Shown: positions 4,565 through 27,021, numbered from the stretch's first letter. The stretch: 40,250 nucleotides of DNA from Terriglobia bacterium (GCA_041484625.1 JBGPHY010000002.1:1-40250), one strand, 5' to 3'. The notes: generated by a model from the letters alone, not told the origin. Translations and numbers: made by a program.

Positions 4565-4691
4565 GTCAGTGCTCTGCGTTGCACGGGGGAAATCGTAGGG
4601 CTTTTCTGCGAAACGCCGCATGTTCAGGCGGATGACAAACCCGTCCTACATACAGCAACATCGCACAAGTACCTCCAGTCGAGAAATCCCC

Positions 4692-4721
4692 TTGACTCCG
4701 GCTTTTTGCCGGGAGTAATAT
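4692..4721 (+). promoter_or_regulatory. Candidate sigma70-type promoter for the riboswitch-led B12 uptake operon
   Basis: TTGACT (4692-4697), 18-nt spacer, TAATAT (4716-4721), about 25 nt upstream of the riboswitch. Motif match only. Confidence 0.4.
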
Positions 4722-4744
4722 CACTTTGATTTCCACGTACCCGG

Positions 4745-4908
4745 GGTGCATCCAGGTAATAGGGAAGTGGGTGAAATCCCCACACGATCGCGTCACTGTA
4801 TTCGGCGAGTCGCTTTCTCGTGGCAGTTCAGGCTGCCGGTCACTCTCGAGTGAGGGGAAGGCCTTGGAAGCGATGAAGACCCGTGAGTCAGGAAACCTGC
4901 CTCGGTAA
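4745..4908 (+). promoter_or_regulatory. Cobalamin (B12) riboswitch
   Basis: Conserved cores read directly from the sequence: AGGGAAGTGGGTGAAATCCCC, GCGTCACTGT, GCCGGTCACT ... GGGGAAGGC, and the B12 box GAGTCAGGAAACCTGCC (about 4884-4900). It lies in the 5' leader of a TonB receptor and BtuFCD-like genes. Boundaries are approximate. Confidence 0.85.
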
Positions 4909-5015
4909 GAAATCCAAAAAAAACCTTCGCGTCAAAGGGTAAATGACATTCTGCTTCTACTCCTCAACTGATTACCCCTCAGACGCCGCTTGGACTTTTC
5001 CAGGAGGCTTCCATT

Positions 5016-7199: not shown

Positions 7200-8074
7200 T
7201 GAAGAAACTCCTGCTGGCCGTTGTTTTGGTTGCGGTGGGCCTGCTGATTTATCGGCAGGTCACGAGGAAAAGCCTGCCATCACTGTCTTCCAGTGAAGGG
7301 GTGCGAATTATCTCGCTGTCTCCCACACTGACTGAGGTCTTGTTCGAGTTGGGAGAGGGGGAGCGGATTGTGGGTGTTACCAATTACTGCACCTTTCCTC
7401 TTGAGGCAAGAGCAAAGGCAAAGGTGGGAGACCTGGTCAACCCGGATCTCGAGAGAATTGCCCAATTGCAACCCACCATCATCTTTGCCGAGCAATGGAG
7501 TTCCACCAAGATCGTGAGCCGCTTGAGAAACCTCGGTCTGAAAGTGACAGAAGTGCCCAGTCCGCGATCCATTGAGGAAATCTACCGGTTGATTGAATCG
7601 GTCGGCGAACAGGTGGGAAAGGCCGGGCGAGCCCGTGAGATTGTATCTGACATGAGTGCCCGCATTCTGGCCGTGAAGGAAAAGGCCGCGCGGTTCGAAC
7701 ATCATCCCACGATTTATATCGAGATTGATATTCCATCCTGGTCAGTCGGTCGCGCCAGTTACACCCATGAAGCCGTGACGCTATGCGGAGCACGCAACCT
7801 GTTGGAAGACGTCGACAAGCCGGCACTGCTGGTGTCCCAGGAAATCATCATTCAGCGCAATCCAGAAGTGATTCTGTCGTTTGAAGCCTCGGCCGAACAA
7901 ATTCGTAAACGGCCTGGATGGGGAGTGATCTCGGCAGTACAACGGGGCTGGATCATTGATCACTTCAACCGGGATCTCCTTTCCCGCGGCAACTTCAGGC
8001 TGGTGCAGGGAATGGAGGATTTCCAGTCCCGGTTGGAATCGCTGCTGAAGAAGAAGGCTCGGTCTTCACCATGA
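7199..8074 (+). CDS. Periplasmic substrate-binding protein, BtuF-like (cobalamin/siderophore class)
   Basis: ATG at 7199 overlaps the receptor stop (TGATG). N-terminal TM/signal. RIISLSPTLTEVLFELGEGERIVGVTNYC is typical of BtuF/FhuD-type binding proteins. Confidence 0.85.
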   Translation: MKKLLLAVVLVAVGLLIYRQVTRKSLPSLSSSEGVRIISLSPTLTEVLFELGEGERIVGVTNYCTFPLEARAKAKVGDLVNPDLERIAQLQPTIIFAEQWSSTKIVSRLRNLGLKVTEVPSPRSIEEIYRLIESVGEQVGKAGRAREIVSDMSARILAVKEKAARFEHHPTIYIEIDIPSWSVGRASYTHEAVTLCGARNLLEDVDKPALLVSQEIIIQRNPEVILSFEASAEQIRKRPGWGVISAVQRGWIIDHFNRDLLSRGNFRLVQGMEDFQSRLESLLKKKARSSP

Positions 8075-8125
8075 ACTGGCACATATGCAGATTCCAAGGA
8101 AATTCGTTCTCGTCGTGGGACTCTC

Positions 8126-9091
8126 ATGAAGAATAACCCGGCTTCGACTCTGAAATCAAAGCAACGTTTATTGTGGCTTTGGCTGGCGACCGTGGCCATC
8201 GCAATAATCGCTTTGTTCCTGGGCCCGGCCGGGATACCCGACCGAAACATCCTCCTGGCTGTTCGCCTTCCCCGGGTCCTGTTGGGATTGCTGGTGGGCA
8301 TGGGTCTGGCAGGGTCCGGAACAGTATTTCAGGGAGTCCTCCGGAATCCGCTGGCTGACCCCTTCATCCTGGGGACCTCCAGCGCGGCCACGGCCGGAGT
8401 CATGTTGGCCAATTTAACGGGCATCCGCAATTTCTACCTGCTGTATTTCATGGCACTCGGATTTGCTCTCCTGTCAATTACGATCGTCTACCAGATCTCT
8501 CGAATTGATGGGAAATCTCCCATTCAGACGATGGTGCTGGCCGGAGTCATTGTCAGCCTTTTCTTTAACGCACTGGTGTTCATCGTCTTTTCGATTTTAT
8601 ATCGGGAATCCTTCAACGTGCTGTTTTTTCTATTGGGGACGCTGACTGGGGGAGATCCTATGTTGATTGTCCTTTCAGCCATCCTCATCCTGCTGGGTTT
8701 TGGCGCGAGCTGGCTGCTCTCTCGAGAGCTGAACATTTTGACCCAGGGCGAAGAAACAGCCTTCCACCTGGGCGTCGACGTGGAGACCATAAAGAAAATC
8801 CTGTTTGTGGCGGCCTCGGCAATGACCAGGGCCGCTGTGGCTGTTGCCGGGATGATCGGCTTTGTAGGCTTGATTGTTCCTCACATGATGCGCATGATTG
8901 TGGGACCGGACCACCGCTACCTGATTCCCGCATCCGCCCTGGGAGGAGCGATCCTGCTGATTGTCACGGACGCCCTGGCCCGAACTCTCGCCCCTCCGCT
9001 GGAAATCCCGGTGGGGGCACTAACAGCCTTGCTGGGTGCGCCGTACTTCGTTTATTTGCTGCGCCAACGACAACGGGCTGGAGAGTTCTAA
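8126..9091 (+). CDS. FecCD-family ABC importer permease (BtuC-like)
   Basis: 321-aa polytopic membrane ORF with FecCD-type sequence (RLPRVLLGLLVG ... NPLADPFILGTSSGA-like ... GLIVPH). Its stop overlaps the next ATG (TAATG at 9089-9093). Confidence 0.9.
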   Translation: MKNNPASTLKSKQRLLWLWLATVAIAIIALFLGPAGIPDRNILLAVRLPRVLLGLLVGMGLAGSGTVFQGVLRNPLADPFILGTSSAATAGVMLANLTGIRNFYLLYFMALGFALLSITIVYQISRIDGKSPIQTMVLAGVIVSLFFNALVFIVFSILYRESFNVLFFLLGTLTGGDPMLIVLSAILILLGFGASWLLSRELNILTQGEETAFHLGVDVETIKKILFVAASAMTRAAVAVAGMIGFVGLIVPHMMRMIVGPDHRYLIPASALGGAILLIVTDALARTLAPPLEIPVGALTALLGAPYFVYLLRQRQRAGEF

Positions 9092-9867
9092 TGCTGCGGT
9101 TGGAGAACATCAGCTTTAGCTATCAAGACCAAGCGGTGATCCGGGATGTGAATGCAGAGATCCGGCAGGGGACGTTTCAGGCCCTGATCGGTCCCAACGG
9201 GTCGGGGAAAACGACCCTATTGCGGCTGATGAGCCGTGTGCTGGAACCGCAGAGAGGTAGGATCCTGCTGGATGGGGAGCCTCTCGGTCGAATGCGAGCG
9301 AGTGACATCGCCCGCAAGATTGCGGTGATTTCCTCGGAGCAATACTTCGAGTTTCCCTTCCTGGTTTCAGATGTGGTCGCCATGGGGCGTTATCCTCATC
9401 TCGCCCGGTTGCAGGCGCTTTCGCAGAAGGACCTGGAACTGGTGGAAGACGCCCTGCGAATGACCGATCTTGGCCCGTTGCGGAATCGTCCCATCTCCCA
9501 CCTCTCCAGTGGCGAACGACAGAGAGTCTTCATTGCCCGGGCCATTGCGCAGCAGCCCCGGGTCCTGATGCTGGATGAACCCAACGCCCATCTGGATGTT
9601 CACCACCAGAAGGCTGTCTTTGATCTCCTTCGGACGCTGCACCGAGATCATGGGATGACGGTTATTGCAGTCCTGCATGATTTGACCACCGCAGCGGCAT
9701 TTTGTGAGGTGGTTATGCTTTTGCACGAAGGGTGTGTTGTCAGGGTCGGCAGTCCCGCTGAGGTCATCACTCGAGACTCGATACGAGAGACGTACGGAGT
9801 CGAAGTGGAAATTTTCCCAAGTCCTGTGGGAGGATTTCCACTGGTGGTCTTTGGTCCCAGGGCCTGA
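9091..9867 (+). CDS. ABC importer ATP-binding protein (BtuD/FepC-like)
   Basis: Walker A GPNGSGKTT, signature LSSGERQRV, Walker B MLDEP, H-loop LHD. Confidence 0.92.
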   Translation: MLRLENISFSYQDQAVIRDVNAEIRQGTFQALIGPNGSGKTTLLRLMSRVLEPQRGRILLDGEPLGRMRASDIARKIAVISSEQYFEFPFLVSDVVAMGRYPHLARLQALSQKDLELVEDALRMTDLGPLRNRPISHLSSGERQRVFIARAIAQQPRVLMLDEPNAHLDVHHQKAVFDLLRTLHRDHGMTVIAVLHDLTTAAAFCEVVMLLHEGCVVRVGSPAEVITRDSIRETYGVEVEIFPSPVGGFPLVVFGPRA

Positions 9868-10888: not shown

Positions 10889-11233
10889 TCAACTCGATTT
10901 CTCTCCTTGACAGCCCTGGCAGGGGCAGATCTCGCGGAGGAAGGCAAAGGTGTAAATGCCGGAAGAATGACCATCATTCCAATGTAACTGAATGGCATAA
11001 TTCCCTATCGGATCCGCTCCCGTGGCTTTGATGGGGCCTTTTCCGTAAATCGGCAAGGGATCGACTTCGGTCTTCACTTCGGGAGGATGGTCTCGGCAGG
11101 CGGCACAGGGGCATTTCTTCCTGAGGTAGTCATAGGGGTAGACCGACTGGTGTTCATCGCTCCAGCGGATTCCAATGCCGCCAGGTGCTGACAACTTGAT
11201 GGACTTGGGGAAAAAGACCATTGTCACGGTCAT
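10889..11233 (-). CDS. DUF971 domain protein (zinc-binding, gamma-butyrobetaine hydroxylase N-terminal-like)
   Basis: 114-aa ORF with cysteine pairs CPCAAC and CPCQGC and the HWNDGHSSGIY motif typical of DUF971. Its ATG overlaps the mrp stop (ATGA at 11230-11233). Confidence 0.8.
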   Translation of the reverse strand: MTVTMVFFPKSIKLSAPGGIGIRWSDEHQSVYPYDYLRKKCPCAACRDHPPEVKTEVDPLPIYGKGPIKATGADPIGNYAIQLHWNDGHSSGIYTFAFLREICPCQGCQGEKSS

Positions 11234-12324
11234 TCCTCGATGGAGATGGCAGGTGTAGTCTGGGCGTTGACCTTACTCACCTGGCTGGCGACTGCTTCCG
11301 CCAGCTCAGTAAATGCCCGACTGATGGGACTGTTGCCATCTTCCAAGGCGACCGGTTGCCCGTCGTCGCTGCGAGCTCGAATTGTCGTGCTCAAGGGGAT
11401 CTCGCCGAGGAAGGGGTAGCCCGCCTTCTGACTGGCCCGGCGCGCGCCTCCGTGACCGAAGATATCGTCCCTCTCTCCGCAGTGGGAACATGCGTAATAG
11501 CTCATATTTTCAGCAATCCCTAAGATGGGGGTGTTGAGCTTCTTGAACATGGCAATGGCCTTGGACGCCACCTCCAGGGCCAGGCCCTGAGGGGTTGAAA
11601 CAATCACGGCTCCGGTCAGGGGGATCGTCTGGCATAGGCTGAGTTGAATGTCGCCGGTCCCCGGCGGCAGATCAATTACCAGGTAATCGAGTTCTCCCCA
11701 ATCAACATCTCCCAGAAACTGCTGAACCATCTTGTGCAGCATCGGACCCCGCCAGATTACCGCTTCATCCTTGGGCAGGAAGTAACCCATGGACATCAGT
11801 TTGATCCCGCGGACTTCCGGCGGCTGAATCCTGCCCCTGTCCATGATGGGGGGTTCAAAAGCACCCATCAAGATTGGAACGCTAGGACCATAAACATCCG
11901 CATCCATCAAGCCGACACGGGCTCCGTACTTGCCTAGCGAGATAGCAAGATTGGCGGAAACTGTGGACTTGCCCACGCCGCCTTTCCCGCTGGCCACGGC
12001 GATCGTGTTGCGGGTCCTTGGAATCAGAGCATGGGGCTCCGAGCCGGCCCGGGTGCTGATGTTGGATCTCATCGACACCGAGACACGAGTGACCCCCGGA
12101 AGCTGCCTGACCTTGTCTTCAGCTTGATGCTGGATCTGCAACTTACCGGGAAACAGAGGGGTGTCAAATTCGATAGCCAGGCTCACATTCCCTTCGGCGA
12201 GCTTCAGGTCCTTGACCAGCCCACGGGTAACGATGTCTTCATCCCATCCGGGATCACGAATTTCCCTGAGGACCTCCAACACTTGATCCTCATCGAGCAC
12301 TGTATCCTTCTTGAAGAGTCCCAT
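11230..12324 (-). CDS. mrp: Mrp/NBP35/ApbC-family Fe-S cluster carrier ATPase with N-terminal DUF59-like domain
   Basis: Walker A SGKGGVGKST, C-terminal CSHCGERDDIFG (CxxC cluster ligands), N-terminal MIP18/DUF59-like region (EDQVLEVLREIRDPGWDEDIV). Confidence 0.92.
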   Translation of the reverse strand: MGLFKKDTVLDEDQVLEVLREIRDPGWDEDIVTRGLVKDLKLAEGNVSLAIEFDTPLFPGKLQIQHQAEDKVRQLPGVTRVSVSMRSNISTRAGSEPHALIPRTRNTIAVASGKGGVGKSTVSANLAISLGKYGARVGLMDADVYGPSVPILMGAFEPPIMDRGRIQPPEVRGIKLMSMGYFLPKDEAVIWRGPMLHKMVQQFLGDVDWGELDYLVIDLPPGTGDIQLSLCQTIPLTGAVIVSTPQGLALEVASKAIAMFKKLNTPILGIAENMSYYACSHCGERDDIFGHGGARRASQKAGYPFLGEIPLSTTIRARSDDGQPVALEDGNSPISRAFTELAEAVASQVSKVNAQTTPAISIEE

Positions 12325-13512: not shown

Positions 13513-13788
13513 CTATCCGCCAGCAATGGCCGGGATAATGGAGACCTCATCCGATTCCTTGACCGGCGTGTCTAGATTTTGCAGGAATCGGATGTCCTCC
13601 TCGTTGACAAAGATGTTGACGAAGCGGCGGACCCGGCCATCAGCCTCGCAGATCCGGTCTCTCACTCCCGGGTGCTGTTTCTCAATGTCGTTGATGATAT
13701 CTTGGACAGACTTCCCGCTGGCCGTGACGACTTCCTGACCACTAGTCAAGGAACGCAACTGAACGGGTATTCGAACCTGAATTGACAT
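13513..13788 (-). CDS. MoaD/ThiS/CysO-type ubiquitin-like sulfur-carrier protein with C-terminal Gly-Gly
   Basis: 91 aa counted from MSIQVRIP. It ends ...EVSIIPAIAGG followed directly by the stop. The internal RFVNIFVNEEDIRF closely resembles CysO-type carriers as I recall them. Last gene of the riboswitch-led operon. Confidence 0.8.
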   Translation of the reverse strand: MSIQVRIPVQLRSLTSGQEVVTASGKSVQDIINDIEKQHPGVRDRICEADGRVRRFVNIFVNEEDIRFLQNLDTPVKESDEVSIIPAIAGG

Positions 13789-13853
13789 TCGACCTCTCCT
13801 CAATTTAAGAAGATTGCAGACTCCTTCAAGTGGGGCTGACCCGCCGGTTGCCC

Positions 13854-14936
13854 CTAGGATTTCTTCCTCAAAAGCCCTTTAGCGATCAATAATTCCGCAT
13901 TTAAAATGGCAGCCCCTGCCGCCCCGCGAATGGTGTTGTGGCCTAGTACGTTGAACTTGTAGTCAAAAATAGGACACTCGCGGATGCGGCCCACCACCGT
14001 AGCCATCCCCTTTTCAATATCCCGGTCCAGGCGTGGCTGAGGGCGATCCCTCCCCTCGACGATGACAACAGGGTGCGTCGGGGCGCTGGGGAGTTTCAGC
14101 TTCTGGGGGATCGAGCTGTATTCCCTGAAGGCCGCGATCAGTGCTTCCACGGAGGGACGGCGCTTCATGCTTACCGATACTGCCTCCAGATGACCGTCCA
14201 GGACATTGACCCGATGGCAGTGGGCACTGATCTTGAAATTGGCCAGCAGAACCTTTCCATCCTGTAACTTTCCCAGAATCTTTCGGGGCTCGATCTCAAC
14301 TTTCTCTTCTTCTACGTCAATGTAAGGAACCACGTTGTCGATAATATCCAGGCTGGCCACACCGGGGTAACCGGCTCCGGACAGTGCCTGCATTGTCACG
14401 ACGTGAACAGTCTCCAGCCCGAATTCCCGGTGCAGGGGAGCCAGTGCCAGAACCATGGCCATAGCGGTGCAATTGGGGTTGGTGACAATATACCCGTCAT
14501 GGTATCCCTGATTCTTTTTCTGAAGAGGCAGGAGATCCAGGTGCTCATGGTTGATTTCGGGAACCAACAAGGGCACATCCTCATCCATGCGATGGTTCTT
14601 GGAATTGCTTAGTGCCGGGTAGCCGGCCTTGGCAAAGGCAGTTTCAACCTTCCCGGCAATGTTGGAGGGCAGCCCCGAGAAGACAAAGTCGCAGTCCAGT
14701 GGAGGGGCGCACTCTCTCACCACCAGGTTCCGGGCATATTCAGGAATCCGTCCGGAGATTTTCCATGTGCAAGTTTGATGATAGAGCTTTCCTTCCGAAC
14801 GATCTGAGGCGGCGATGTCACCTACTTCGATCCAGGGGTGGTTCTCCAAGAGTTGGATGAACCGCTGGCCCACTGTGCCAGTGGCGCCTAGAATTCCTGC
14901 TTTGAGTTTCTGTTTCATCTTTTTAAGATACCTCAC
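13854..14936 (-). CDS. asd: Aspartate-semialdehyde dehydrogenase
   Basis: KAGILGATGTVGQRF NAD(P) motif and active-site NPNCTA. Length and sequence fit the archaeal/fungal-type Asd. The start is uncertain: GTG 14936 or ATG 14918. Confidence 0.9.
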   Translation of the reverse strand: MRYLKKMKQKLKAGILGATGTVGQRFIQLLENHPWIEVGDIAASDRSEGKLYHQTCTWKISGRIPEYARNLVVRECAPPLDCDFVFSGLPSNIAGKVETAFAKAGYPALSNSKNHRMDEDVPLLVPEINHEHLDLLPLQKKNQGYHDGYIVTNPNCTAMAMVLALAPLHREFGLETVHVVTMQALSGAGYPGVASLDIIDNVVPYIDVEEEKVEIEPRKILGKLQDGKVLLANFKISAHCHRVNVLDGHLEAVSVSMKRRPSVEALIAAFREYSSIPQKLKLPSAPTHPVVIVEGRDRPQPRLDRDIEKGMATVVGRIRECPIFDYKFNVLGHNTIRGAAGAAILNAELLIAKGLLRKKS

Positions 14937-14954: not shown

Positions 14955-16127
14955 TCATCCGGCTGCGATTTCCTTCAGAGCAACGACGCAGCGATCAATC
15001 TCCTCTTCAGTATTGAAAAAGCCTGCGCTAATACGGATCGCACCATCGGGGAATGTCCCCAGGCTCCGATGTGCGTAAGGGGCACAGTGCAGGCCCGGGC
15101 GCACGGCGATGTGAAAGGCTTCGTCCAGGATGGCCCCGGCTTCGGGTGCAGTGTATCCTGCCACCGTGAGCGTCAGGGTGGCGACCCTTCGGTTCAGATC
15201 CTGGCTGCCATAAAGTTGAAAACGGGGATCGTCTTTCAAAGCCTCAATCAGGCGCCCTAGCAAGCGGGTTTCGTGTCCTTGAATTCTGGCCAGTGTCTCC
15301 TCCACCACAAACTCTACCCCCGCCCTAAGACCGGCAATCCCAACGGTGTTCGGGGTTCCTCCCTCCAACCGGTACGGCAGTTCTCCCGGTTGCACGGGGC
15401 TTGAGGAATCACCACCGGTACCACCTTCACGCCAGGCCGACAAACTGGAACGTTCTCCGACAACCAGGACACCCACCCCGGTGGGGCCCAGCATGGCCTT
15501 ATGTCCAGGCAGTGCCAGAAGGTCGATTTGGTCCTCTTCCATCTGAATGGGAAGCACACCGGCCGTCTGCGCCGCATCCACAAGAAAAAGGAGGTCGTGC
15601 TCGCGAGCGATTTTTGCGACTTCCCGAATGGGCTGAACAGTACCCAAAACGTTGGAGGCGTGGGTCAGGACGATCAAGCGGGTACGGGGACTAATGGCTT
15701 TTTCAATGTCGCCGGGGTCGATGAACCCAGCCTGTGAAAAGGGAACTTGCGTCAACGTAATCCTTCCGTCCTGTTCCAGTTGCTTCAATGGACGGGAAAC
15801 AGAATTGTGTTCGAGGAGCGAGGTAATGACGTGGTCTCCGTCTTTCACCGTTCCTTTGATTCCAATGTTCAACGAGTCGGTGGTGTTGAGAGTGAAAATG
15901 ACTCGATGAGGGGAGGAAATCCCGAAAAACTGTGCCAGCAACACACGCGTTTCCTCAATGGACTTCTCAGCCCTTACGGCCATTCGATGTCCGGCACGCC
16001 CGGGATTGGCTCCATCGGTCCGCAGAAAATCAGCGAGTGCCGAATACACGGACTCAGGCTTGGGGTAACTGGTGGCCGCATTGTCGAGATACAGAATGTC
16101 AGACCTCAAATGTCCTCCACAAAACAC
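14955..16127 (-). CDS. Class V aminotransferase, cysteine desulfurase family
   Basis: LYLDNAATSYPKP at the N-terminus, PLP-lysine context LPGHKAMLGPTGVG, active-site cysteine context RPGLHCAPYAH. The start is GTG 16127, or TTG 16109 preceded by GGAGG. Confidence 0.85.
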   Translation of the reverse strand: MFCGGHLRSDILYLDNAATSYPKPESVYSALADFLRTDGANPGRAGHRMAVRAEKSIEETRVLLAQFFGISSPHRVIFTLNTTDSLNIGIKGTVKDGDHVITSLLEHNSVSRPLKQLEQDGRITLTQVPFSQAGFIDPGDIEKAISPRTRLIVLTHASNVLGTVQPIREVAKIAREHDLLFLVDAAQTAGVLPIQMEEDQIDLLALPGHKAMLGPTGVGVLVVGERSSLSAWREGGTGGDSSSPVQPGELPYRLEGGTPNTVGIAGLRAGVEFVVEETLARIQGHETRLLGRLIEALKDDPRFQLYGSQDLNRRVATLTLTVAGYTAPEAGAILDEAFHIAVRPGLHCAPYAHRSLGTFPDGAIRISAGFFNTEEEIDRCVVALKEIAAG

Positions 16128-16277: not shown

Positions 16278-17312
16278 TCACGCCCCCACATATTTGGCAT
16301 AAACGGAGCGCGCGACATTGGGATCCTTGGTGCCCTTCACGATGCCGCGACCGTCGGGAAACACCGCAATTTCGTAGGCATCGACCTCAAACTTCAAAAG
16401 GAACTTGTTGAAATGAACCACTCCCAGCGGTTTCAACCGGTGTGCCAAGTGTTCAAAGTCCAGTTGATGTCCTCCCGACTGGTTGATCTGCACGGAATTA
16501 CGGCCGCACAGGGTGGTGACGGTTGATCCTTCTTTCCCTTCCAGGAATTCGTACCGCCCCATTTTGCAGACTGGACACTCTCCCTGCTCCTTGGCGCTGG
16601 CAATTTCAAAGCGCTTCCAGGAGTTCTCCCACACATCGAAGTAGATCATCTTACGGTTAATCCGGTGCAGATTCCCGGTCAAGATCTTCAGGGCCTCGGC
16701 CACCTGAATAGAGGCGATAATGTTCACAATCGAGGCCAGGACACCGGCAGTGTCACAGGTGGGTGACATCCCTGGAGGAGGCATTGTCTCGAAAATACAA
16801 CGCAAACAAGGGGTCTCGTGAGGAATGACGGTCATCGAGAGTCCGTAGCTTCCCACTGAAGCCCCATAGATCCAGGGCTTCCGATGTTTGACCGCCACAT
16901 CGTTCAGAAGAAAACGGGTCTCGAAGTTGTCGGTCGCGTCCAAAATAAGGTCGACCCCCTCGACTAGGGACTCAATATTCTTGTAGTTGACATCGGCCAC
17001 CAATGCATCTACGGTTACTTGGGAGTTGATCTGTCGAAGCCGTTTCTGAGCTGCCACGGCCTTGGGCAAACCCGCCTGGACATCCTCTTCGGAAAAGAGC
17101 GTCTGCCGCTGAAGGTTGCTTTCCTCGATGAAATCCCGATCGACAATGCGAAGGAACCCGACCCCTGCCCGGCACAAGGCATCGGCTTGAACTGTCCCGA
17201 GGGCCCCGCAGCCGAGAATTGCCACTTTGCTTTGCACCAGCTTGAGTTGTCCGCTTTCCCCGATTTCAGGAAAGAGCATTTGCCGGGAGTATCTTTCAAT
17301 TTGTGAGGGCAT
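16278..17312 (-). CDS. ThiF/MoeB/HesA-family E1-like adenylyltransferase with C-terminal extension
   Basis: RYSRQMLF, GCGALG nucleotide loop, DRDFIEESNLQRQ, two CxxC pairs (CLRC, CPVC), and a ~100-aa C-terminal domain (LCGRNSVQI ... FPDGRGIVKGTKD) like Firmicute ThiF-type proteins rather than a rhodanese. ATG 17312 is preferred; the track start 17417 is a TTG that adds a low-complexity extension. Confidence 0.85.
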   Translation of the reverse strand: MPSQIERYSRQMLFPEIGESGQLKLVQSKVAILGCGALGTVQADALCRAGVGFLRIVDRDFIEESNLQRQTLFSEEDVQAGLPKAVAAQKRLRQINSQVTVDALVADVNYKNIESLVEGVDLILDATDNFETRFLLNDVAVKHRKPWIYGASVGSYGLSMTVIPHETPCLRCIFETMPPPGMSPTCDTAGVLASIVNIIASIQVAEALKILTGNLHRINRKMIYFDVWENSWKRFEIASAKEQGECPVCKMGRYEFLEGKEGSTVTTLCGRNSVQINQSGGHQLDFEHLAHRLKPLGVVHFNKFLLKFEVDAYEIAVFPDGRGIVKGTKDPNVARSVYAKYVGA

Positions 17313-17439
17313 AGCGTCCTGTTTAAACGTCCACCTGCTGTGGCTATAGGGAATCGAAGAATCGGAGATGCGGAGAATTGGGGAAATGGAAGCGCCCCCG
17401 GCAGCTTCAGAGTACAAACTTACCGTTCTTCTCTCGCAT

Positions 17440-18729
17440 TCACTCGAGTCCGGTCAATGGCGAAACGAGCCCTTCAAACTCGCTGAGTCTGGCACTGATG
17501 ACTTGCGGGCGCGCCAGGTGGTCTTGAATTGCTTCCTGGGTTTTCAATCCGTTGCCGGTAACAGAAATGACGGTCACCTCGTCGGACAGGATTCTGCCTT
17601 GCTGAACCAGCTTCTGAGTGACCGCCACAGTCACGCCTCCAGCCGTTTCCGTGAAGATTCCTTCATCTTCGGCGAGCATACGGATTCCCGCAACGATCTC
17701 CTCATCCGACACGTCTTCACCCCAACCGCCGGATTCCGTCATGGCCTTGATGGCGTAATAACCGTCTGCAGGGTTACCAATGGCAATCGATTTTGCAATG
17801 GTTTGAGGTTTGACCGGTTTGATGAAATCACGTCCGGATTTTATTGCCGTGGTGATCGGAGAACATCCTGTCGCCTGGGCCCCAAAAACTTTGCAGTGGC
17901 CTTCGGCAACTAGGCCCAGCTTTTCCAGCTCGAGAAAAGACTTTCGGATTTTGGTAATCAGTGAACCACCGGCCATAGGGGAGACCACACAATCCGGAAT
18001 TCGCCAGCCGAGTTGTTCAGCGATCTCGTATCCAAAGCTCTTGGAGCCTTCGGCATAGAATGGGCGGAGATTGATATTGACGAATCCCCACCGGTACTTC
18101 ATGGAGATTTCGCTGCAAAGCCGGTTGACATCGTCGTAATTCCCATCCACCCCGATGACATGGGTCTGGTAGACCATCGTTCCTAGAATCTTTCCAAGTT
18201 CCAGATCGGCTGGGATGAAAATGTAACTGCGCAGGCCGACACTGGCGGCGTTGGCGGCCACCGAGTTCGCCAGGTTGCCGGTAGAGGCGCAACCAACGGT
18301 GTCAAATCCAAACTCCAGGGCCTTGGAAAGGGCCACTGAAACCACACGGTCCTTAAAGGACAAGGTCGGGAAACAAACGCTGTCGTTCTTGATGTAAAGA
18401 TTTTTCACTCCAAGTCTTCGCGCGAGATTCGTCGCCTTGACCAGGGGAGTGAACCCCACTTGCCTACCCACGGTCGCCTCCCCATCCAGGGGGAGGAGTT
18501 CCCGGTACCGCCACATGTTGGGAGGTCGGCTTTCGATCAGTGCCCGGGTAAGCGTTTTTTTCAGGAAGTCGTAATCATAGATGACCTCCAAGGGGCCAAA
18601 ACAGTACTCGCAGACCGAAAGCGGGGCCTTTGGGTATTGCCTCTCGCATTCCCGACACTGGAGCCCGGAAACGCAAGAGCTTTGTATATTGCTATCCGCG
18701 TTGCGGATCTTATTCGGCGAAGTGGCCAT
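17440..18729 (-). CDS. Threonine-synthase-family fold-type-II PLP enzyme with N-terminal zinc ribbon (candidate thiocarboxylate-dependent homocysteine synthase)
   Basis: 429-aa ORF. CRECERQYPKAPLSVCEYC zinc ribbon. PLP-lysine motif PTLSFKDR. ThrC-like body. First gene after the SAM-I riboswitch. Confidence 0.85.
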   Translation of the reverse strand: MATSPNKIRNADSNIQSSCVSGLQCRECERQYPKAPLSVCEYCFGPLEVIYDYDFLKKTLTRALIESRPPNMWRYRELLPLDGEATVGRQVGFTPLVKATNLARRLGVKNLYIKNDSVCFPTLSFKDRVVSVALSKALEFGFDTVGCASTGNLANSVAANAASVGLRSYIFIPADLELGKILGTMVYQTHVIGVDGNYDDVNRLCSEISMKYRWGFVNINLRPFYAEGSKSFGYEIAEQLGWRIPDCVVSPMAGGSLITKIRKSFLELEKLGLVAEGHCKVFGAQATGCSPITTAIKSGRDFIKPVKPQTIAKSIAIGNPADGYYAIKAMTESGGWGEDVSDEEIVAGIRMLAEDEGIFTETAGGVTVAVTQKLVQQGRILSDEVTVISVTGNGLKTQEAIQDHLARPQVISARLSEFEGLVSPLTGLE

Positions 18730-18757
18730 TGGTTTTTCCCATGGGGGTTCGATGCTT

Positions 18758-18786
18758 AAAAAAAAACCTCTTCAATAAGAAGAGGT
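18758..18786 (-). terminator. Intrinsic terminator forming the SAM-I riboswitch expression platform
   Basis: The minus strand reads ACCTCTTC-TTATT-GAAGAGGT followed by nine T (A-run 18758-18766 on the plus strand). The 5' arm CCTCTTCTTAT can instead pair with the 3' P1 strand GATAAGAAAAGG, giving an antiterminator. Confidence 0.8.
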
Positions 18787-18802
18787 CTTGGATATCATCC
18801 TT

Positions 18803-18907
18803 TTCTTATCTGTCAGAAACACTCTTCTGCAGGAGTTGGCACCTTCCCGCTGCGGGGGGTTGCCGTGGTTTCAAAGGGCCGGTCCCTCAACCACTCTCGA
18901 TAAGAAG
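18803..18907 (-). promoter_or_regulatory. SAM-I (S-box) riboswitch aptamer
   Basis: The minus strand reads CTTCTTATCGAGAGTGGTTGAGGGACCGGCCCTTTGAAACCACGGCAACCCCCCGCAGCGGGAAGGTGCCAACTCCTGCAGAAGAGTGTTTCTGACAGATAAGAA. This carries P1 TTCTTATC/GATAAGAA, the GAGGGA kink-turn region, GGCCC ... GAAACC ... GGCAACC, AAGGTGCCAA-TCCTGC, and P4 CAGAA/TTCTG. Confidence 0.9.
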
Positions 18908-18930
18908 TACTATTCAATTGTCAATCGGAA

Positions 18931-18958
18931 ATTATACTGGGGTTGGCGTGAATGTCAA
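18931..18958 (-). promoter_or_regulatory. Consensus sigma70-type promoter driving the SAM-I leader
   Basis: Minus strand TTGACA (18958-18953), 16-nt spacer, TATAAT (18936-18931), about 25 nt upstream of riboswitch P1. Confidence 0.65.
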
Positions 18959-19200
18959 GGCTTAAGCGCCTAAAGGAAGGGGTGGAGCAGTTTCCAGGGG
19001 AGATAATCGTAGGACGGTAATGTCAGTCGCCTGATTTTGACGTTTCATCGGGAAAACCTGAGAAGTTATCGCCCCTGCAATAAAAGCGGCATTCCACCGG
19101 CGATACCAATCCATGCGCGCGTCAGTTCTAAAGTTTCGTTCGATTTCCGTCGAGATTAAGGAGAGTGAGTTATAATTGAAGCGCGCAGCCAAACAGGCCT

Positions 19201-20652
19201 ATGACCAACAGAAACGCGAAGCAGGGCTACTCCCTCCTGACGATCCTTTTCCTGGTTTCTTCTTTTCTTCCCGGCAGTGCTCTTTCAACCGGGGACACGC
19301 GCCAGACAGTGTTCCCTTCCAGTTCCTCGCCGGAGGAGAGTGGTTCAGGCAAGTCCGCAAGTAAATCAAGAACCAAGAAGAAACGACACAGCCGATTGCG
19401 GGTCACGAAGGTGAGGGTGCCTCGAAACCTGAAGCCCATGCCCGCCTTAGTTGAGACCCCATTTCCCTCGGAAGTAGCACTGTTGAAAGTGGTCGAGAGC
19501 GCCAAATCCCGCCTGGAAAATGAAAAGGTCACCTACTTTGCAGGCTCTAAGAAGAAACAGGCGCGGCGGGAAATCAAGCTGGCACTGGCCAACTTCAAGA
19601 CCGGGGACATCCAGGTAGCGAGCGGAGTTGAGGAGAAAAACCAGTTGATTCTGGATGACCCTCAGATTCGGTACCAGGTCGCCTGGTGGAATGGCTTTAA
19701 CTCATCCATCGACATCCTAGATCCGCCCAACTGCGGTGTAGTGGCGATGCTTTATGCTCTTGACCCCAAGCGGCAAAGCTTTTTTGGTCAGGATGCGATC
19801 ATTTATACTCCCTACTCGAGTGCCCTGCTGCAGCCGGAACTGGTTGAGGCCGGCAAAGGCTACCTGATGGGCAAAATCCGACAGGCCCGGCAGGAATTAG
19901 ACAAGGTTCAGTCGAAATCCACCCCCGGCAAGTCCCTGGCAGTCAGCTCCATCTTCACAGATGAAGATTATTTCAATCTCATTCTTGCCGAGCAGATGGA
20001 CCCCGGACGATTCCGCTCAATCGTCGGAGATGAAACGGAATTCTCCCAGGATCAGGAACTCCAGTTGGTGCGCCTGGCAGAGCGCATCCTGGTAATCGTG
20101 GGAGCCAACCAGGAAGACGCTTACTCGTTTACCGGGAACTATGCCAGTGCCCGAGGCATTACCCAGTTCACCCCGTCCGGTATGAGCGCGGTTTGGGGAA
20201 TGTATCCTGATGCGGGAATTTCTCGCAGTTTCAAGGAAGCCACCGGCAATCATGTCAGCGCCATCAAAGCGGAAATCTGTCTGCTGGATTTCTACCTGGC
20301 GGAACTGGCCGGCGAACATCCCATCTTAATAGGATCGGGATTTGAGAAATACGCTTCAGGCGCCTCTTACAATGGCGGTCCGAAGCGGGTTCATTACGGT
20401 CTGGGAAAATTCGGCGTGGAGTGGCTCAATCCCCAGTCTCGTCTCAAGGAGCTTGCTCACAAGTCGCCGCTAAACCGGGAGGAGCGCCTCGAATACCAGT
20501 GGCTCAAACGGTATAAGGCCCACGAGACTTACGTTTACCTCAACAAGATGCACGCTCTCGAGAGCCTTCAGGTCAAGTTGGAACTGCGTCACCTGACTGA
20601 GAATTCCCTCGAACCTGGCGCCAACAATACTAATACCTCCCTGCCTCGCTAG
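19201..20652 (+). CDS. Secreted hypothetical protein with a divergent SLT-like (lytic transglycosylase) region
   Basis: Signal peptide (LLTILFLVSSFLPGSALS), then a Ser/Lys/Arg-rich linker. Residues NQEDAYSF ... ASARGITQFTPSG ... ASGASYNGGPKRV parallel the SLT motifs E-S, AxGLMQ and AYNAG. Confidence 0.6.
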   Translation: MTNRNAKQGYSLLTILFLVSSFLPGSALSTGDTRQTVFPSSSSPEESGSGKSASKSRTKKKRHSRLRVTKVRVPRNLKPMPALVETPFPSEVALLKVVESAKSRLENEKVTYFAGSKKKQARREIKLALANFKTGDIQVASGVEEKNQLILDDPQIRYQVAWWNGFNSSIDILDPPNCGVVAMLYALDPKRQSFFGQDAIIYTPYSSALLQPELVEAGKGYLMGKIRQARQELDKVQSKSTPGKSLAVSSIFTDEDYFNLILAEQMDPGRFRSIVGDETEFSQDQELQLVRLAERILVIVGANQEDAYSFTGNYASARGITQFTPSGMSAVWGMYPDAGISRSFKEATGNHVSAIKAEICLLDFYLAELAGEHPILIGSGFEKYASGASYNGGPKRVHYGLGKFGVEWLNPQSRLKELAHKSPLNREERLEYQWLKRYKAHETYVYLNKMHALESLQVKLELRHLTENSLEPGANNTNTSLPR

Positions 20653-21983: not shown

Positions 21984-24182
21984 TCACTCCTGGCTGAAGA
22001 GCTTAGACCGGTTGACTCGCTCGCCTTTGTAAATGACCAGCGAGATTCTTTCGGTAGCGGCGATATCTCTAGTGGGGTCTCCGTCGACCAGCAACAAATC
22101 TGCATCATGGCCTTTCCGCAGCAGCCCAATCCTCTGGTCAGCACCCATCAGGCGGGCCGCGTTATAGGTGGCGGCCTGTAAAGCTGCAGGTGCCGGGACA
22201 CCAGCTTCCACCCAAAGTTGCAGTTCACGATGGACCGTCGGGCCGTGAAACACTAGCAGGTTTCCGGCGTCACTCCCTGTAACCAACCTCACGCCCGCGC
22301 GATAAGCACGACGCAGATTTTCTTTGCCTTGCCTGAGGTCGGGACGCCAGCCCCTGAACTGAGCAACTATTGGGCTGGGTTGGCCCGAACCAAGCGCCCT
22401 ACGAGTCGCCTTGATCAGCGATGCAGGACCGACTTGTTCCACCAATGAACGATTCAGAACGTCATCCTTTCCATTGTAGAGCTGGTCCACTGCCTCCGCT
22501 ACACTCAGCGTTGGATCGTAGGCGATCCCCTTCCGAGCCATGGTGACAAGAAGGTCGTCGTTAATAGGTTCCTGGAAAGTCCCGTGTTCAATGTCATCGA
22601 CTCCGATCCTCAAGGCATCGGCAATGTCTCGATTGTCTCCAGTATGCACGACCATCGGGAGATGCTGCGCCCTGGCCTCCTCAGCCACCGCCTGCAGGAT
22701 CGATACATCCATCCGGTTAAACAGCATCCCGGTCCTGCCAGTTTCCAGGATTGCCTTGACCCCGTCCACCCCCTGGGTCTTCAGATCGCGCACTTGGCGG
22801 CGGGCTTCTTCCGGGTCCTTGGGAAGACGGACCATTTGAGCCAAAGCCTGGTTCTTGGCAATTTCCGGGAGTTGTTCGAAATACTCTGTCCCATGCCCGC
22901 CTTCAGCAGTAAACACCGGTCCGCAGAGGAACAGGCTGGCTCCCAGCCTTTCACCATTGGCAATCCGGGACCGCAGCCGAAGCGCTTCATCGAGCGGATC
23001 CCCCACGCTCCTGACGCACGTGACACCGCAATAAAGATAGGCAGCCAGGGCTCTAGCCATGGCGGAGGCCACAGAATAGTTGTCCTGTTTCTCATGGATA
23101 CCGCCTGGAGCGGCTAGATGAACATGCACATCTATCAGCCCGGGGAGGAGTGTTTTGCCCGAGGCTTCAATCAAGTCCGCCTTGAGAATCTTTGGGTCCG
23201 GTATGGCCCCGGCGTAGACATCTTCAATCTTTCCGTTCTTGATCAGCACTCCGCCTGATTCTATGATCTGGCCATCGCCCACGAAGATTTTGGCGCCTCG
23301 AATGAGCAAGGTCTGGCTGCGCTGAAGATCCCGGTAAAGCAACTCTTGCTGGCGAAGGTGGTCCTGGTGGTAGGCCTGGAAGGTTCCTAGAAGCACAAAA
23401 GGAGCCAAGACTGCCAGGACCCAGCCCTTGGCACCGGCGGATATCCTCTCTCCTTTCTCCCAGCGGAAAATCTGCTTGGCGATGAAGACTGCCAGAACCA
23501 TAGTCAACAGCAGGGCAGTGAGCGCCGAACCGTTCTCCAGCAAAGTCTGACGATGGAAGAAAACGCTCTGGAATCCCGTGACCAGGTAGGAAGCGGGCAG
23601 GTATTGGGAGATGAGACGAGCCCATTTCGGCAGGAAGGCTATGGGAATAGTTGCGCCGCTCAAGAAGAGCATGGGCATGTACAACAATTGAATCAGGATC
23701 TGACTTTCCTGGGAAGAATTTGCGACAGCCGCCAGGATCAAGCCGATGGCACGAAACGTCATGACTCCCAAAGAAACCCACCCAAAGAGCGAAAGGAGAT
23801 TGTGGGGGACTGGCATCCCGTAGAGGATGTGCGCCAGAAACAGAATCAGCACCACGTTAGGAAGGAAGATCAGCCAGCCGGTCACAATCGAGGCTACCAG
23901 CAATGGCAGAGGGGAGATCGGAGTGACTTTGTAACGACGCAGGATATTGTTCTCCCTTTCCTGCACAGCCCGCATGCCAGCGCCAAACAGGCCATTGCCC
24001 AGGATTCCGACTACCAGCACCATTGACACTACATAAGTGATAGCGCCACCTTGCTCGGCACCCATCATTTCTGCGAATATAAAAAAGAAGACCAGCGGGA
24101 AAAGGTAGTTGAAAAAGAGAACCTCTCTGCTGCGAGAGGCCAGCAGGACATCGATCTTGATCAGTGCCAGGTAGCTTCTCAT
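21984..24182 (-). CDS. ABC-2-type exporter permease fused through an extra TM helix to an amidohydrolase-superfamily domain
   Basis: Residues ~1-260 counted from MRSYLALIK form six TM segments of ABC-2 type. An Arg/Lys-rich loop follows, then a 7th TM (WVLAVLAPFVLLGTF), then an amidohydrolase domain with ligand motifs LIDVHVHL, VVHTGD, IEHG, GSDAG. ATG 24182 overlaps the ATPase stop (ATGA). Confidence 0.8.
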   Translation of the reverse strand: MRSYLALIKIDVLLASRSREVLFFNYLFPLVFFFIFAEMMGAEQGGAITYVVSMVLVVGILGNGLFGAGMRAVQERENNILRRYKVTPISPLPLLVASIVTGWLIFLPNVVLILFLAHILYGMPVPHNLLSLFGWVSLGVMTFRAIGLILAAVANSSQESQILIQLLYMPMLFLSGATIPIAFLPKWARLISQYLPASYLVTGFQSVFFHRQTLLENGSALTALLLTMVLAVFIAKQIFRWEKGERISAGAKGWVLAVLAPFVLLGTFQAYHQDHLRQQELLYRDLQRSQTLLIRGAKIFVGDGQIIESGGVLIKNGKIEDVYAGAIPDPKILKADLIEASGKTLLPGLIDVHVHLAAPGGIHEKQDNYSVASAMARALAAYLYCGVTCVRSVGDPLDEALRLRSRIANGERLGASLFLCGPVFTAEGGHGTEYFEQLPEIAKNQALAQMVRLPKDPEEARRQVRDLKTQGVDGVKAILETGRTGMLFNRMDVSILQAVAEEARAQHLPMVVHTGDNRDIADALRIGVDDIEHGTFQEPINDDLLVTMARKGIAYDPTLSVAEAVDQLYNGKDDVLNRSLVEQVGPASLIKATRRALGSGQPSPIVAQFRGWRPDLRQGKENLRRAYRAGVRLVTGSDAGNLLVFHGPTVHRELQLWVEAGVPAPAALQAATYNAARLMGADQRIGLLRKGHDADLLLVDGDPTRDIAATERISLVIYKGERVNRSKLFSQE

Positions 24183-25102
24183 TCTCGCAGGCTCTTTCCG
24201 GTCAACTCGATGAAAACGTCTTCCAGGGACGGACGTTTCAAGTGCACGTCGGTCAGGTCCAACCCATTTTGATCCAACCATTTCACCAGATCCACCAGGG
24301 TCTTAGCCGGATGAGTGCTGATGACCGAGATCGTTTTGCGATCTGCGGAGAGATGCAGGTGGGTCGCGTGGTTCCATTCCGGAGTGGCAAGTTCGGGGAG
24401 AACAGAGGCACACTCGATCTCGATCATGGACTGACCCAGCGTCCGGGCCTGGATTTCCCTGGGAGATCCTAGAGCGATGATTCGGCCCTCGTCGATGATG
24501 GCCACGCGGTCGCAAAGTCTCTCCGCCTCCTCGATGTAATGAGTGGTCAACAGAATGGTGCGCTTCTCCTGCCGCAATTTCTGGACAAGCTCGTAGATTT
24601 CGTGGCGAGCCTGTGGATCTAGCCCTGCCGAAGGTTCGTCCAGGAAGACCACTTGGGGATCGTTTAACAATGCGAGAGCCAACGCCAGGCGCTGTTTCTG
24701 GCCCCCAGAGAGGGTTTCGTAGGACTGGTTTCGCTTCTCCCAGAGTTGAAGCCGTTCCAGGAGCTGACGGCTGTCCACAGTTCGGGAATAGAGGTCACCG
24801 AACAGTTCCATGGCCTCCTTCACCTTGAGTTTGGCGGAAAGGTTGGTTTCTTGGAGGCAGACGCCAATCTGGTCCTTGAGCTGTTTGCTTTGTCGCCCTG
24901 GATCCAGTCCGAGAACTGATACGTATCCACCGTCTCGCGGACGAAGCCCTTCCAGGATCTCCACTGTCGTCGTTTTTCCGGCTCCATTGGGTCCCAGGAG
25001 CCCGAAAACCTCTCCCGCGTGGATCTCAAAGTCAATCCCTTTGACGGCTCGGAAGTCTCCGTATTGTTTGGTTAACGCTCGAACCTGGATGGGAGCGTCC
25101 AA
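24179..25102 (-). CDS. ABC-2/DrrA-type exporter ATP-binding protein
   Basis: Walker A GPNGAGKTT, signature LSGGQKQRL, Walker B FLDEP, H-loop TTHY. Translationally coupled to the permease fusion. Confidence 0.92.
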   Translation of the reverse strand: MDAPIQVRALTKQYGDFRAVKGIDFEIHAGEVFGLLGPNGAGKTTTVEILEGLRPRDGGYVSVLGLDPGRQSKQLKDQIGVCLQETNLSAKLKVKEAMELFGDLYSRTVDSRQLLERLQLWEKRNQSYETLSGGQKQRLALALALLNDPQVVFLDEPSAGLDPQARHEIYELVQKLRQEKRTILLTTHYIEEAERLCDRVAIIDEGRIIALGSPREIQARTLGQSMIEIECASVLPELATPEWNHATHLHLSADRKTISVISTHPAKTLVDLVKWLDQNGLDLTDVHLKRPSLEDVFIELTGKSLRE

Positions 25103-25789: not shown

Positions 25790-25980
25790 ACTTCAAGCAC
25801 TCCGATATGAGTTCGGACCCCATTATAGCTCATGGAGGAGGATTCTTTGAAATCTTCCAGGAGATCCACCCTCAGCATGTGTTATATTTTCTGCTCTTTG
25901 CTGACGCGAGGAGTTCGCGGCTCAACAGATAACAATTGAAGGCTGAAAGCCTATTCAGTAAGCTACGAACAGGAGTCTCC

Positions 25981-27021
25981 ATGTTCAAAACCTTGGAGTG
26001 GACCGAAGACGGACTTCGCATGATTGATCAACGGAAATTGCCTGGAGAGGAGGTTTATCCCGTCTTTCGGACCTATCAGGAAGTGGCGCAAGCCATCAAG
26101 GACATGGTAGTGCGAGGCGCCCCAGCGATCGGAGTGGCTGCCGCGATGGGGGTTGCCTTGGGGGTCAAGCAAATTCGCGAGTCTGACCCCGAGCGCTTTG
26201 AAAAGAAGTTCTTGGAAATCTGTAACACGCTTGCCGCCACCCGTCCCACAGCCGTCAATCTCTTTTGGGCTCTGGAGCGGATGAAGAAGGTTTTCTACAA
26301 GGGGCTTGAGGGCAAACCATTAGCCGAACTCCAGGAGATCCTGAAGGCAGAAGCCCTCCAGATATACCGAGAGGATATCGAGTTAAACCGGCAGATGGGC
26401 CGCTTCGGCGCCAGCCTGATTCCGGACCGGGCCACCGTGTTGACCCACTGCAACGCAGGGGCACTGGCCACTGCGGGATATGGGACGGCACTGGGGGTGA
26501 TTCGCGCGGCTATTGAGCAAGGAAAGACGTTGCATATTTATGCGGATGAGACCCGGCCTTTCCTTCAAGGGGCTCGCCTGACAGCCTGGGAACTCCAGAA
26601 GGACAAAATCCCAGTGACGCTGATCACCGACAATATGGCTAGGCATTTCATGAAGTCTGCCAGGATCGATTGCGTACTAGTGGGTGCTGACCGCATTGCC
26701 GCCAACGGTGATGTGGCCAATAAGATCGGGACCTACACAGTGGCTGTGCTGGCCAAGGAAAATGAAGTTCCCTTCTACGTGGCAGCTCCACTTTCCACAC
26801 TGGATCTCAGCTTGTCTTCGGGAGACCAGATTCCTATCGAGCAGCGGCCGGCATCTGAAGTCACTCACATTCAACAGACCCGCATTGCCCCCGACGGAGT
26901 GGAGGTGGCAAACCCGGCCTTCGACGTGACTCCCGCCCGCTATGTGACCGCCATCATTACGGAGAAAGGAATTGCCCATCCGCCTTATTTGGAAAGCTTG
27001 AAAGCGCTCTCCCAAAGTTAA
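25981..27021 (+). CDS. mtnA: S-methyl-5-thioribose-1-phosphate isomerase (methionine salvage)
   Basis: [60 protein letters not shown] 25981 is preferred over the TTG track start 25936. Confidence 0.9.

Follow-up and report, generated by a model that had tools for sequence, protein, structure and literature searches.

A SAM-I riboswitch in a Terriglobia bacterium precedes five genes that probably form a homocysteine operon of the MetM/MetO type

The window, i.e. the whole stretch of 40,250 nucleotides analysed here (Terriglobia bacterium, GCA_041484625.1, JBGPHY010000002.1:1-40250), carries on its minus strand a SAM-I leader placed in front of a string of five genes. We propose, with a probability of about 80%, that this leader is an OFF switch over a five-gene operon that makes homocysteine by a thiocarboxylate route of the MetM/MetO type. 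Judging from sequence and gene context, the product of the first gene, annotated as 'threonine synthase', most likely carries the wrong name and is a homocysteine synthase of this type. The elements of the leader and the genes behind it are as follows.

18958..18931, minus strand: sigma-70-type promoter, TTGACA-16 nt-TATAAT, 12 of 12 consensus positions
18906..18803, minus strand: SAM-I (S-box) aptamer (RF00162), a P1-P4 four-way junction with a P2-loop/J3/4 pseudoknot
18809..18775, minus strand: antiterminator helix, the P1 3' strand plus AAAGG (18809-18799) with the terminator 5' arm (18785-18775)
18789..18758, minus strand: intrinsic terminator, hairpin at 18789-18763 and U9 at 18766-18758
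18729..17440, minus strand: ThrC-family PLP enzyme of 429 aa with an N-terminal Cys4 motif (PALP; TIGR00260), proposed MetM-type homocysteine synthase
17417..16278, minus strand: E1-like adenylyltransferase of the ThiF/MoeB family (PF00899, 258.7 bits)
16127..14955, minus strand: cysteine desulfurase with the class-V aminotransferase fold (PF00266, 291.9 bits)
14936..13854, minus strand: aspartate-semialdehyde dehydrogenase, archaeal-type Asd (NF006416, 482.5 bits, and TIGR00978, 448.7 bits, both above cut-offs)
13803..13513, minus strand: ThiS/MoaD-type sulfur carrier ending in AIAGG and a stop codon (PF02597, 63.8 bits), proposed MetO equivalent

The covariance-model check set by the initial annotation was run with Rfam, and RF00162 matched over its full length (model positions 1-108) with 97.2 bits and an E-value of 2e-22, against a gathering score of 44.4 bits; this was the only SAM-I match within the window. 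The S-box landmarks named beforehand were each found in the sequence: the P1 strands (UUCUUAUC/GAUAAGAA), GAGGGA, GGCCC, GCAACC, GGUGCCAA and the P4 hairpin. A covariance model and a covariation test were built on 19 related leaders, in which standard pairs occupied 93.1% of the pair cells, compared with 36-44% in slid-partner controls, and compensatory double changes were observed at 15 of the 32 aptamer pairs. The pseudoknot helix was 93.4% paired in the same set, and two of its four pairs covaried. By its sequence, the element is a genuine, textbook member of the SAM-I class, predicted to bind SAM. It has the same four-way junction, core nucleotides and pseudoknot as the SAM-I elements of the Bacillus subtilis yitJ and metI leaders and the Thermoanaerobacter tengcongensis metF aptamer, and likewise a terminator/antiterminator platform, OFF logic and a sulfur amino-acid operon downstream. 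It differs from them in its host, which is a soil acidobacterium (Terriglobia) and not a Firmicute, and in its 4-bp pseudoknot, which has one C.U mismatch at a pair that alternates between U-A and A-U among the related leaders. In contrast to the classical SAM-I targets metA, metB and metY, the operon downstream is proposed to encode a protein-thiocarboxylate route to homocysteine.

The promoter described in the initial annotation was borne out at all 12 hexamer positions, and the distance from its -10 element to P1, previously given as about 25 nt, was measured as 24 nt. No second promoter-like site was found within the 1-kb region around it (18400-19400; shuffle mean 0.4), and both hexamers are kept in the closest relative, Candidatus Versatilivorator (Acidobacteriota/Terriglobia; L001), whose leader is collinear with that of the window from the -35 element through the U-tract. 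Transcription is predicted to start near position 18924. Exactly as had been noted, 28 nt separate the end of the U-tract from the ATG at 18729, and this ATG is the sole in-frame start available to the downstream ORF. A plus-strand ORF at 18630-18965 was rejected as a gene, since it runs across the structured leader and the terminator. Divergent from the riboswitch promoter lies another plus-strand ORF (19201-20652) of 483 aa, whose N-terminus resembles a signal peptide and which has no match in Pfam or NCBIfam; a 493-aa gene, also lacking Pfam matches, occupies its position in one of the Terriglobia relatives (L083).

The terminator hairpin was earlier described as an 8-bp stem followed by T9; the hairpin and the U9 tract were found, while the stem proved to have a G+C-rich core of 7 bp (CCUCUUC/GAAGAGG), extended to 11 pairs in all through A-U and G-U, with the loop UUAUU. 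Its computed folding energy alone is -14.7 kcal/mol, and it is conserved almost base for base in L001. The complementarity between the P1 3' strand and the terminator 5' arm, also claimed previously, is present, although it is not perfect: of the 11 positions at which AUAAGAAAAGG (18809..18799) faces CCUCUUCUUAU (18785..18775), 10 are paired and one is an A.C mismatch. For a transcript ending at 18775, the minimum free energy structure is the antiterminator fold (-42.8 kcal/mol), and enforcing P1 gives -41.7 kcal/mol; as the two states are nearly isoenergetic at this decision point, ligand binding could easily tip the balance. For the full leader, the minimum free energy structure contains P1 and the terminator (-56.2 kcal/mol), compared with -48.3 kcal/mol for the antiterminator state, a gap of about 8 kcal/mol. 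Since the OFF state is thus preferred even without ligand, regulation would have to be kinetic, which is usual for the SAM-I class, and the computed folds agree with an OFF switch that attenuates transcription under kinetic control. Of 36 related leaders, about 30 have a terminator behind the aptamer, in the same layout as in the window, and its 5' arm, CCYCUUCUYA, mirrors the P1 3' strand. The covariance model, the covariation among the 19 leaders and the computed energies of the competing folds together support the OFF mechanism suggested in the initial annotation.

The sigma-70 promoter would drive synthesis of a leader RNA bearing the riboswitch. When SAM is abundant, the aptamer would be bound and P1 locked, and with the P1 3' strand occupied the hairpin and U9 would form, so that transcription would stop 28 nt short of the first gene's ATG. 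At low SAM, the same strand would base-pair with the terminator 5' arm, allowing read-through into the five genes.

The four genes that follow the ThrC-like gene, to which the initial annotation had not drawn attention, encode an E1, a cysteine desulfurase, Asd and a ThiS-like carrier. The E1-like protein also matches NF009123 (403.9 bits), below the cut-off of 510; its true start is probably the ATG at 17315, giving a protein of about 345 aa, and gene calls for its orthologs in two Terriglobia relatives (L083 and L085) give 340-344 aa. The cysteine desulfurase scores 449.7 bits with TIGR01977, above the cut-off of 377. The carrier was recovered by two further models (NF041918, 62.3 bits; TIGR01687, 50.5 bits) and likely starts at the ATG at 13787, which is preceded by GAGGAGAGG, to yield 91 aa (13787-13513), the length at which its orthologs in the same two relatives are called. 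Its Gly-Gly is directly followed by the stop codon, so that the carrier apparently requires no maturation. The window contains neither thrB nor hom, and the supply of O-phosphohomoserine is therefore assumed.

The initial annotation had reasoned from the leader that the 'threonine synthase' belongs to sulfur amino-acid metabolism. The presence of E1, cysteine desulfurase, Asd and the ThiS-like carrier in the operon supports this view, and the proposed pathway can be outlined as follows. Asd would form aspartate semialdehyde, the precursor of homoserine and O-phosphohomoserine. E1 would adenylate the Gly-Gly C-terminus of the ThiS-like carrier, and persulfide sulfur from the cysteine desulfurase would convert it into a thiocarboxylate. 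The ThrC-like PLP enzyme would then exchange the phosphate of O-phosphohomoserine for the carrier sulfur, producing homocysteine. The sequences themselves establish what the aptamer is, the promoter, terminator and antiterminator sequences, the families of the proteins and the linkage of these elements across phyla; SAM binding, termination in vivo, co-transcription of the five genes and each of the enzymatic steps are inferred.

The reach of the leader might be narrower than the whole operon, the riboswitch governing the first gene only or acting on translation, with E1, desulfurase, asd and thiS being expressed independently; we regard this as unlikely. The intergenic gaps of about 124 nt between the ThrC-like gene and E1 and of 150 nt between E1 and the desulfurase leave room for internal promoters, which a consensus scan could have missed, and riboswitches outside Firmicutes are reported to act more often on translation. 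However, the region 18760-13300 contains no consensus promoter, compared with 2.7 expected from shuffles, and the hairpin with U9, lying 28 nt before the ATG, overlaps no ribosome-binding site. Terminator-like sites in the same region were no commoner than in shuffles, and alignments with relatives displayed no conserved elements in the two gaps. Moreover, the leader and the five-gene order are retained where flanking genes differ. Three Terriglobia relatives (L083, L084 and L085) have SAM-I and the identical order of five genes, and in L085 the flanking genes are wholly unlike those of the window, with riboswitch and operon retained as a unit; a DDE transposase, HTH regulators and a PF18165 (pP_pnuc_1) gene are found there upstream of the riboswitch operon (898-2136 and 4599-7385). 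In L001, SAM-I and the first four genes occur in the window order, and the carrier gene is located further downstream.

Control of the complete operon remains the preferred reading, and the wider distribution of its components was examined in 80 loci from species-representative genomes, encoding ThrC-like homologs at 57-77% identity. These loci belong to Acidobacteriota, Nitrospinota, Nitrospirota, Verrucomicrobiota, Planctomycetota, Thermodesulfobacteriota, Zetaproteobacteria, Binatia, one cyanobacterium and others. A ThiS-like ORF follows the ThrC-like gene immediately in 66 of the 80 and lies on the same strand in 75, and an E1 gene is found nearby in 36; in Planctomycetota loci (L041, L069, L072 and L074) a long E1 and a desulfurase accompany the ThrC-like gene, which partly matches the make-up of the window operon. 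A SAM-I element in sense orientation, directly upstream of the ThrC-like gene or of E1 followed by the ThrC-like gene, was detected in 36 of the 80 loci, and no further SAM-I match was found elsewhere in their 0.98 Mb. The other 44 loci were without SAM-I. Rfam scanning of 33 loci confirmed the element in 18; in the 15 SAM-I-negative ones (Nitrospinota, Nitrospirota and others) no other SAM riboswitch class was found by Rfam, and the homologs encoded there appear to be without riboswitch control. Outside this set, the cultured actinomycete Actinoplanes derwentensis has a homolog 53% identical to the window protein, with a SAM-I aptamer that ends 10 nt before the start codon; a homolog search seeded with an actinomycete protein gave matches confined to Micromonosporaceae, top cluster representatives comprised only unnamed or Micromonosporaceae proteins, and a tblastn search of plasmids for MetM returned only Nonomuraea and haloarchaeal thrC genes.

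Protein-thiocarboxylate routes are known to lead to cysteine in Mycobacterium tuberculosis (CysO/CysM) and to homocysteine in Wolinella succinogenes (HcyS/HcyF/MetY). In both, an E1 adenylates a ThiS-like carrier, which is converted to a thiocarboxylate and serves as the sulfide donor for a PLP enzyme. CysM is an O-phosphoserine sulfhydrylase and MetY an O-acetylhomoserine sulfhydrylase of a different PLP fold type, and neither belongs to the ThrC family.

A closer counterpart is the MetM/MetO pathway of Streptomyces albulus (Hasebe, Adachi, Maruyama, Hamano 2024, Appl Environ Microbiol 90:e01247-24). There, O-phosphohomoserine is reported to be converted to homocysteine by means of the carrier MetO, the hydrolase Mec, the ligase MoeZ and the synthase MetM (GapMind 2026, bioRxiv 10.1101/2024.10.14.618325), MetM being a MetO-thiocarboxylate-dependent homocysteine synthase that is often misannotated as ThrC (bioRxiv 10.1101/2024.10.14.618325). 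A SAM riboswitch is reported upstream of S. albulus metM (PMC12172450). The window likewise combines a ThrC-like PLP enzyme named 'threonine synthase', a ThiS/MoaD carrier gene and an upstream SAM riboswitch, and the enzyme lies at a similar distance from canonical ThrC, about one third identity, the published value for MetM and B. subtilis ThrC being 33%. This published example of a ThrC homolog with a SAM riboswitch adds to the support for placing the window gene in sulfur metabolism. The two systems differ in that carrier activation and maturation in Streptomyces are ascribed to MoeZ and Mec, whereas the window operon has its own ThiF-type E1, cysteine desulfurase and asd, and the window carrier already ends in Gly-Gly as encoded. 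By gene content and arrangement, the window locus has the context of a MetM/MetO system, and its first enzyme is a candidate MetM ortholog. The cyanobacterial homolog of Microcystis aeruginosa is given as 51.6% identical to MetM, with a metO-like neighbour and no riboswitch (PMC12172450); the cyanobacterial locus in our set (L079) matches this pattern, as its homolog, 61% identical to the window protein, has thiS next to it and SAM-I is absent. In the literature searched, no earlier comparative-genomics mention of an S-box before thrC-like genes was found.

An operon of this composition might alternatively serve another sulfur compound, such as cysteine from O-phosphoserine in the manner of CysM/CysO, a thio-cofactor or a thio-amino acid, with SAM reporting the general sulfur status. 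Phosphorylated hydroxy-amino acids are the substrates of replacement reactions in the ThrC family as well as among CysM-type PLP enzymes, the window protein has a weak match to the cysteate synthase model TIGR03844 (E = 3.6e-16), and O-phosphohomoserine and O-phosphoserine are indistinguishable as substrates by sequence alone. Still, with a cysteine desulfurase as the sulfur donor, the conversion of cysteine to cysteine would be futile, asd points to a C4 skeleton derived from aspartate, SAM-I control in more than six phyla points to methionine and SAM, and the characterised relative, MetM, is reported to make homocysteine. We therefore consider another product quite unlikely.

Homocysteine synthesis being the preferred assignment, the features of the first enzyme itself need to be reconciled with its name. 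The 429-aa protein scores 274.1 bits with TIGR00260, the NCBIfam thrC equivalog, and since this exceeds the cut-off of 167.1 it receives the automated name 'threonine synthase'; by the TIGR00260 score alone, MetM-type paralogs and true ThrC are not told apart. With the more specific model NF006050 the protein reaches 284.9, below the cut-off of 303. The solved structures that it matches best are without exception threonine synthases (187 bits with Thermus thermophilus ThrC, PDB 1UIM), and every database source gives this name to the more than 200 homologs listed. The window protein shares with the T. thermophilus enzyme the PALP fold, the PLP-lysine motif SFKDR and the STGN loop. Its identity to canonical ThrC is, however, just 34-38%, and its family departs from canonical ThrC in several invariant features: STGNT is replaced by STGNL and N-S-x-N-P-x-R by N-I-N-L-R-P-F-Y, the arginine segment being shifted. 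An N-terminus of 67 residues (residues 1-67; 18729-18529, minus strand) is added, in which C25-x2-C28...C40-x2-C43 occurs family-wide, including in Actinoplanes, and which is absent from all solved ThrC structures; the four cysteines, C25, C28, C40 and C43, and K126 (window numbering) are invariant in the family. A zinc ribbon or a docking site for the carrier are possibilities for this segment.

Ten loci of the Nitrospirota type (L014, L016, L022, L030, L034, L036, L037, L044, L048 and L049; about 1.8-3.1 kb after the match start) contain, in this order, the Cys4-type paralog, thiS and a canonical thrC. The second paralog is 61-67% identical to T. thermophilus ThrC and 34-38% identical to the window protein. 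The presence of canonical ThrC alongside the Cys4-type paralog shows that the two are distinct paralogs, which indicates different functions, and users of O-phosphohomoserine for the methionine and the threonine branch would thus be encoded side by side. As for the leader, no SAM-I was found upstream in the six of these loci that have enough upstream sequence (L034, L036 and L037 have less than 300 nt). This coexistence and the frequent adjacency of ThiS-like genes lend further support to the sulfur assignment of the initial annotation.

It is very improbable that the first gene encodes a true threonine synthase, with the SAM riboswitch balancing the threonine/methionine branch at O-phosphohomoserine: the TIGR00260 score, the solved structures and the database names would favour it, but the protein is only distantly similar to the canonical ThrC that sits beside its paralog in ten loci, its invariant STGNL and N-I-N-L-R-P-F-Y depart from ThrC, its near-constant link is to a carrier useless to threonine synthase, MetM itself is reported to be often misnamed in this way (GapMind 2026, bioRxiv 10.1101/2024.10.14.618325), and repression of ThrC at high SAM would send more O-phosphohomoserine to methionine, i.e. 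feedback in the wrong direction. A switch that is OFF at high SAM provides feedback that suits an enzyme of the methionine pathway and not a threonine synthase. Whereas a canonical thrC would show no sulfur-transfer linkage, this gene sits with E1, desulfurase and carrier under SAM-I.

The SAM-I class is already known and the class of the target gene was described in 2024, and no new regulatory principle is added here. What goes somewhat beyond the published system is a Terriglobia operon in which asd and a carrier apparently free of maturation are combined with a dedicated E1 and a cysteine desulfurase; such an operon might by itself be able to pass cysteine sulfur on to homocysteine. As a more tentative proposal, this could be a self-sufficient, SAM-gated variant of the MetM/MetO system, in which cysteine sulfur would reach homocysteine via a thiocarboxylate, without cystathionine or free sulfide, while asd might push aspartate carbon into the pathway and the Cys4 module might dock the carrier. 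The linkage to SAM-I across phyla is broader than the published case. Because the SAM-I and ThiS linkage spans Acidobacteriota, Verrucomicrobiota, Planctomycetota, Zetaproteobacteria, Binatia, Actinomycetota and others, it suggests that uncultivated bacteria of soils and sediments commonly make homocysteine by a route of the MetM/MetO type. The riboswitch offers direct sequence evidence for correcting a widespread 'threonine synthase' misannotation, which is relevant for metabolic reconstruction and the prediction of methionine auxotrophy.

Several other genes of the window were recorded in passing. Beside the operon, past a convergent proC, a gene for an ApbC/Mrp-type Fe-S carrier ATPase (11230-12324, minus strand) is located; the same neighbour occurs in L083 and L084, which may be simple synteny. 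A gene of the IF-2B family (25936-27021, plus strand), 7 kb from the riboswitch and without a SAM element of its own, probably encodes methylthioribose-1-phosphate isomerase (MtnA) of methionine salvage and is also a neighbour in L083. A second riboswitch of the window belongs to the cobalamin class (RF00174, 75.5 bits, full length; 4727-4918, plus strand) and is followed at 5016-9867 on the same strand by genes for a TonB-dependent receptor, a periplasmic binding protein resembling BtuF, a FecCD-type permease and an ABC ATPase; the region 4727-9867 looks like an ordinary B12-uptake operon. An ORF of 765 aa (21984-24281, minus strand) represents an unusual fusion of an ABC-2-type membrane permease domain (residues 37-242) and an amidohydrolase domain (residues 377-756), and an ABC ATPase gene (24179-25102) adjoins it.
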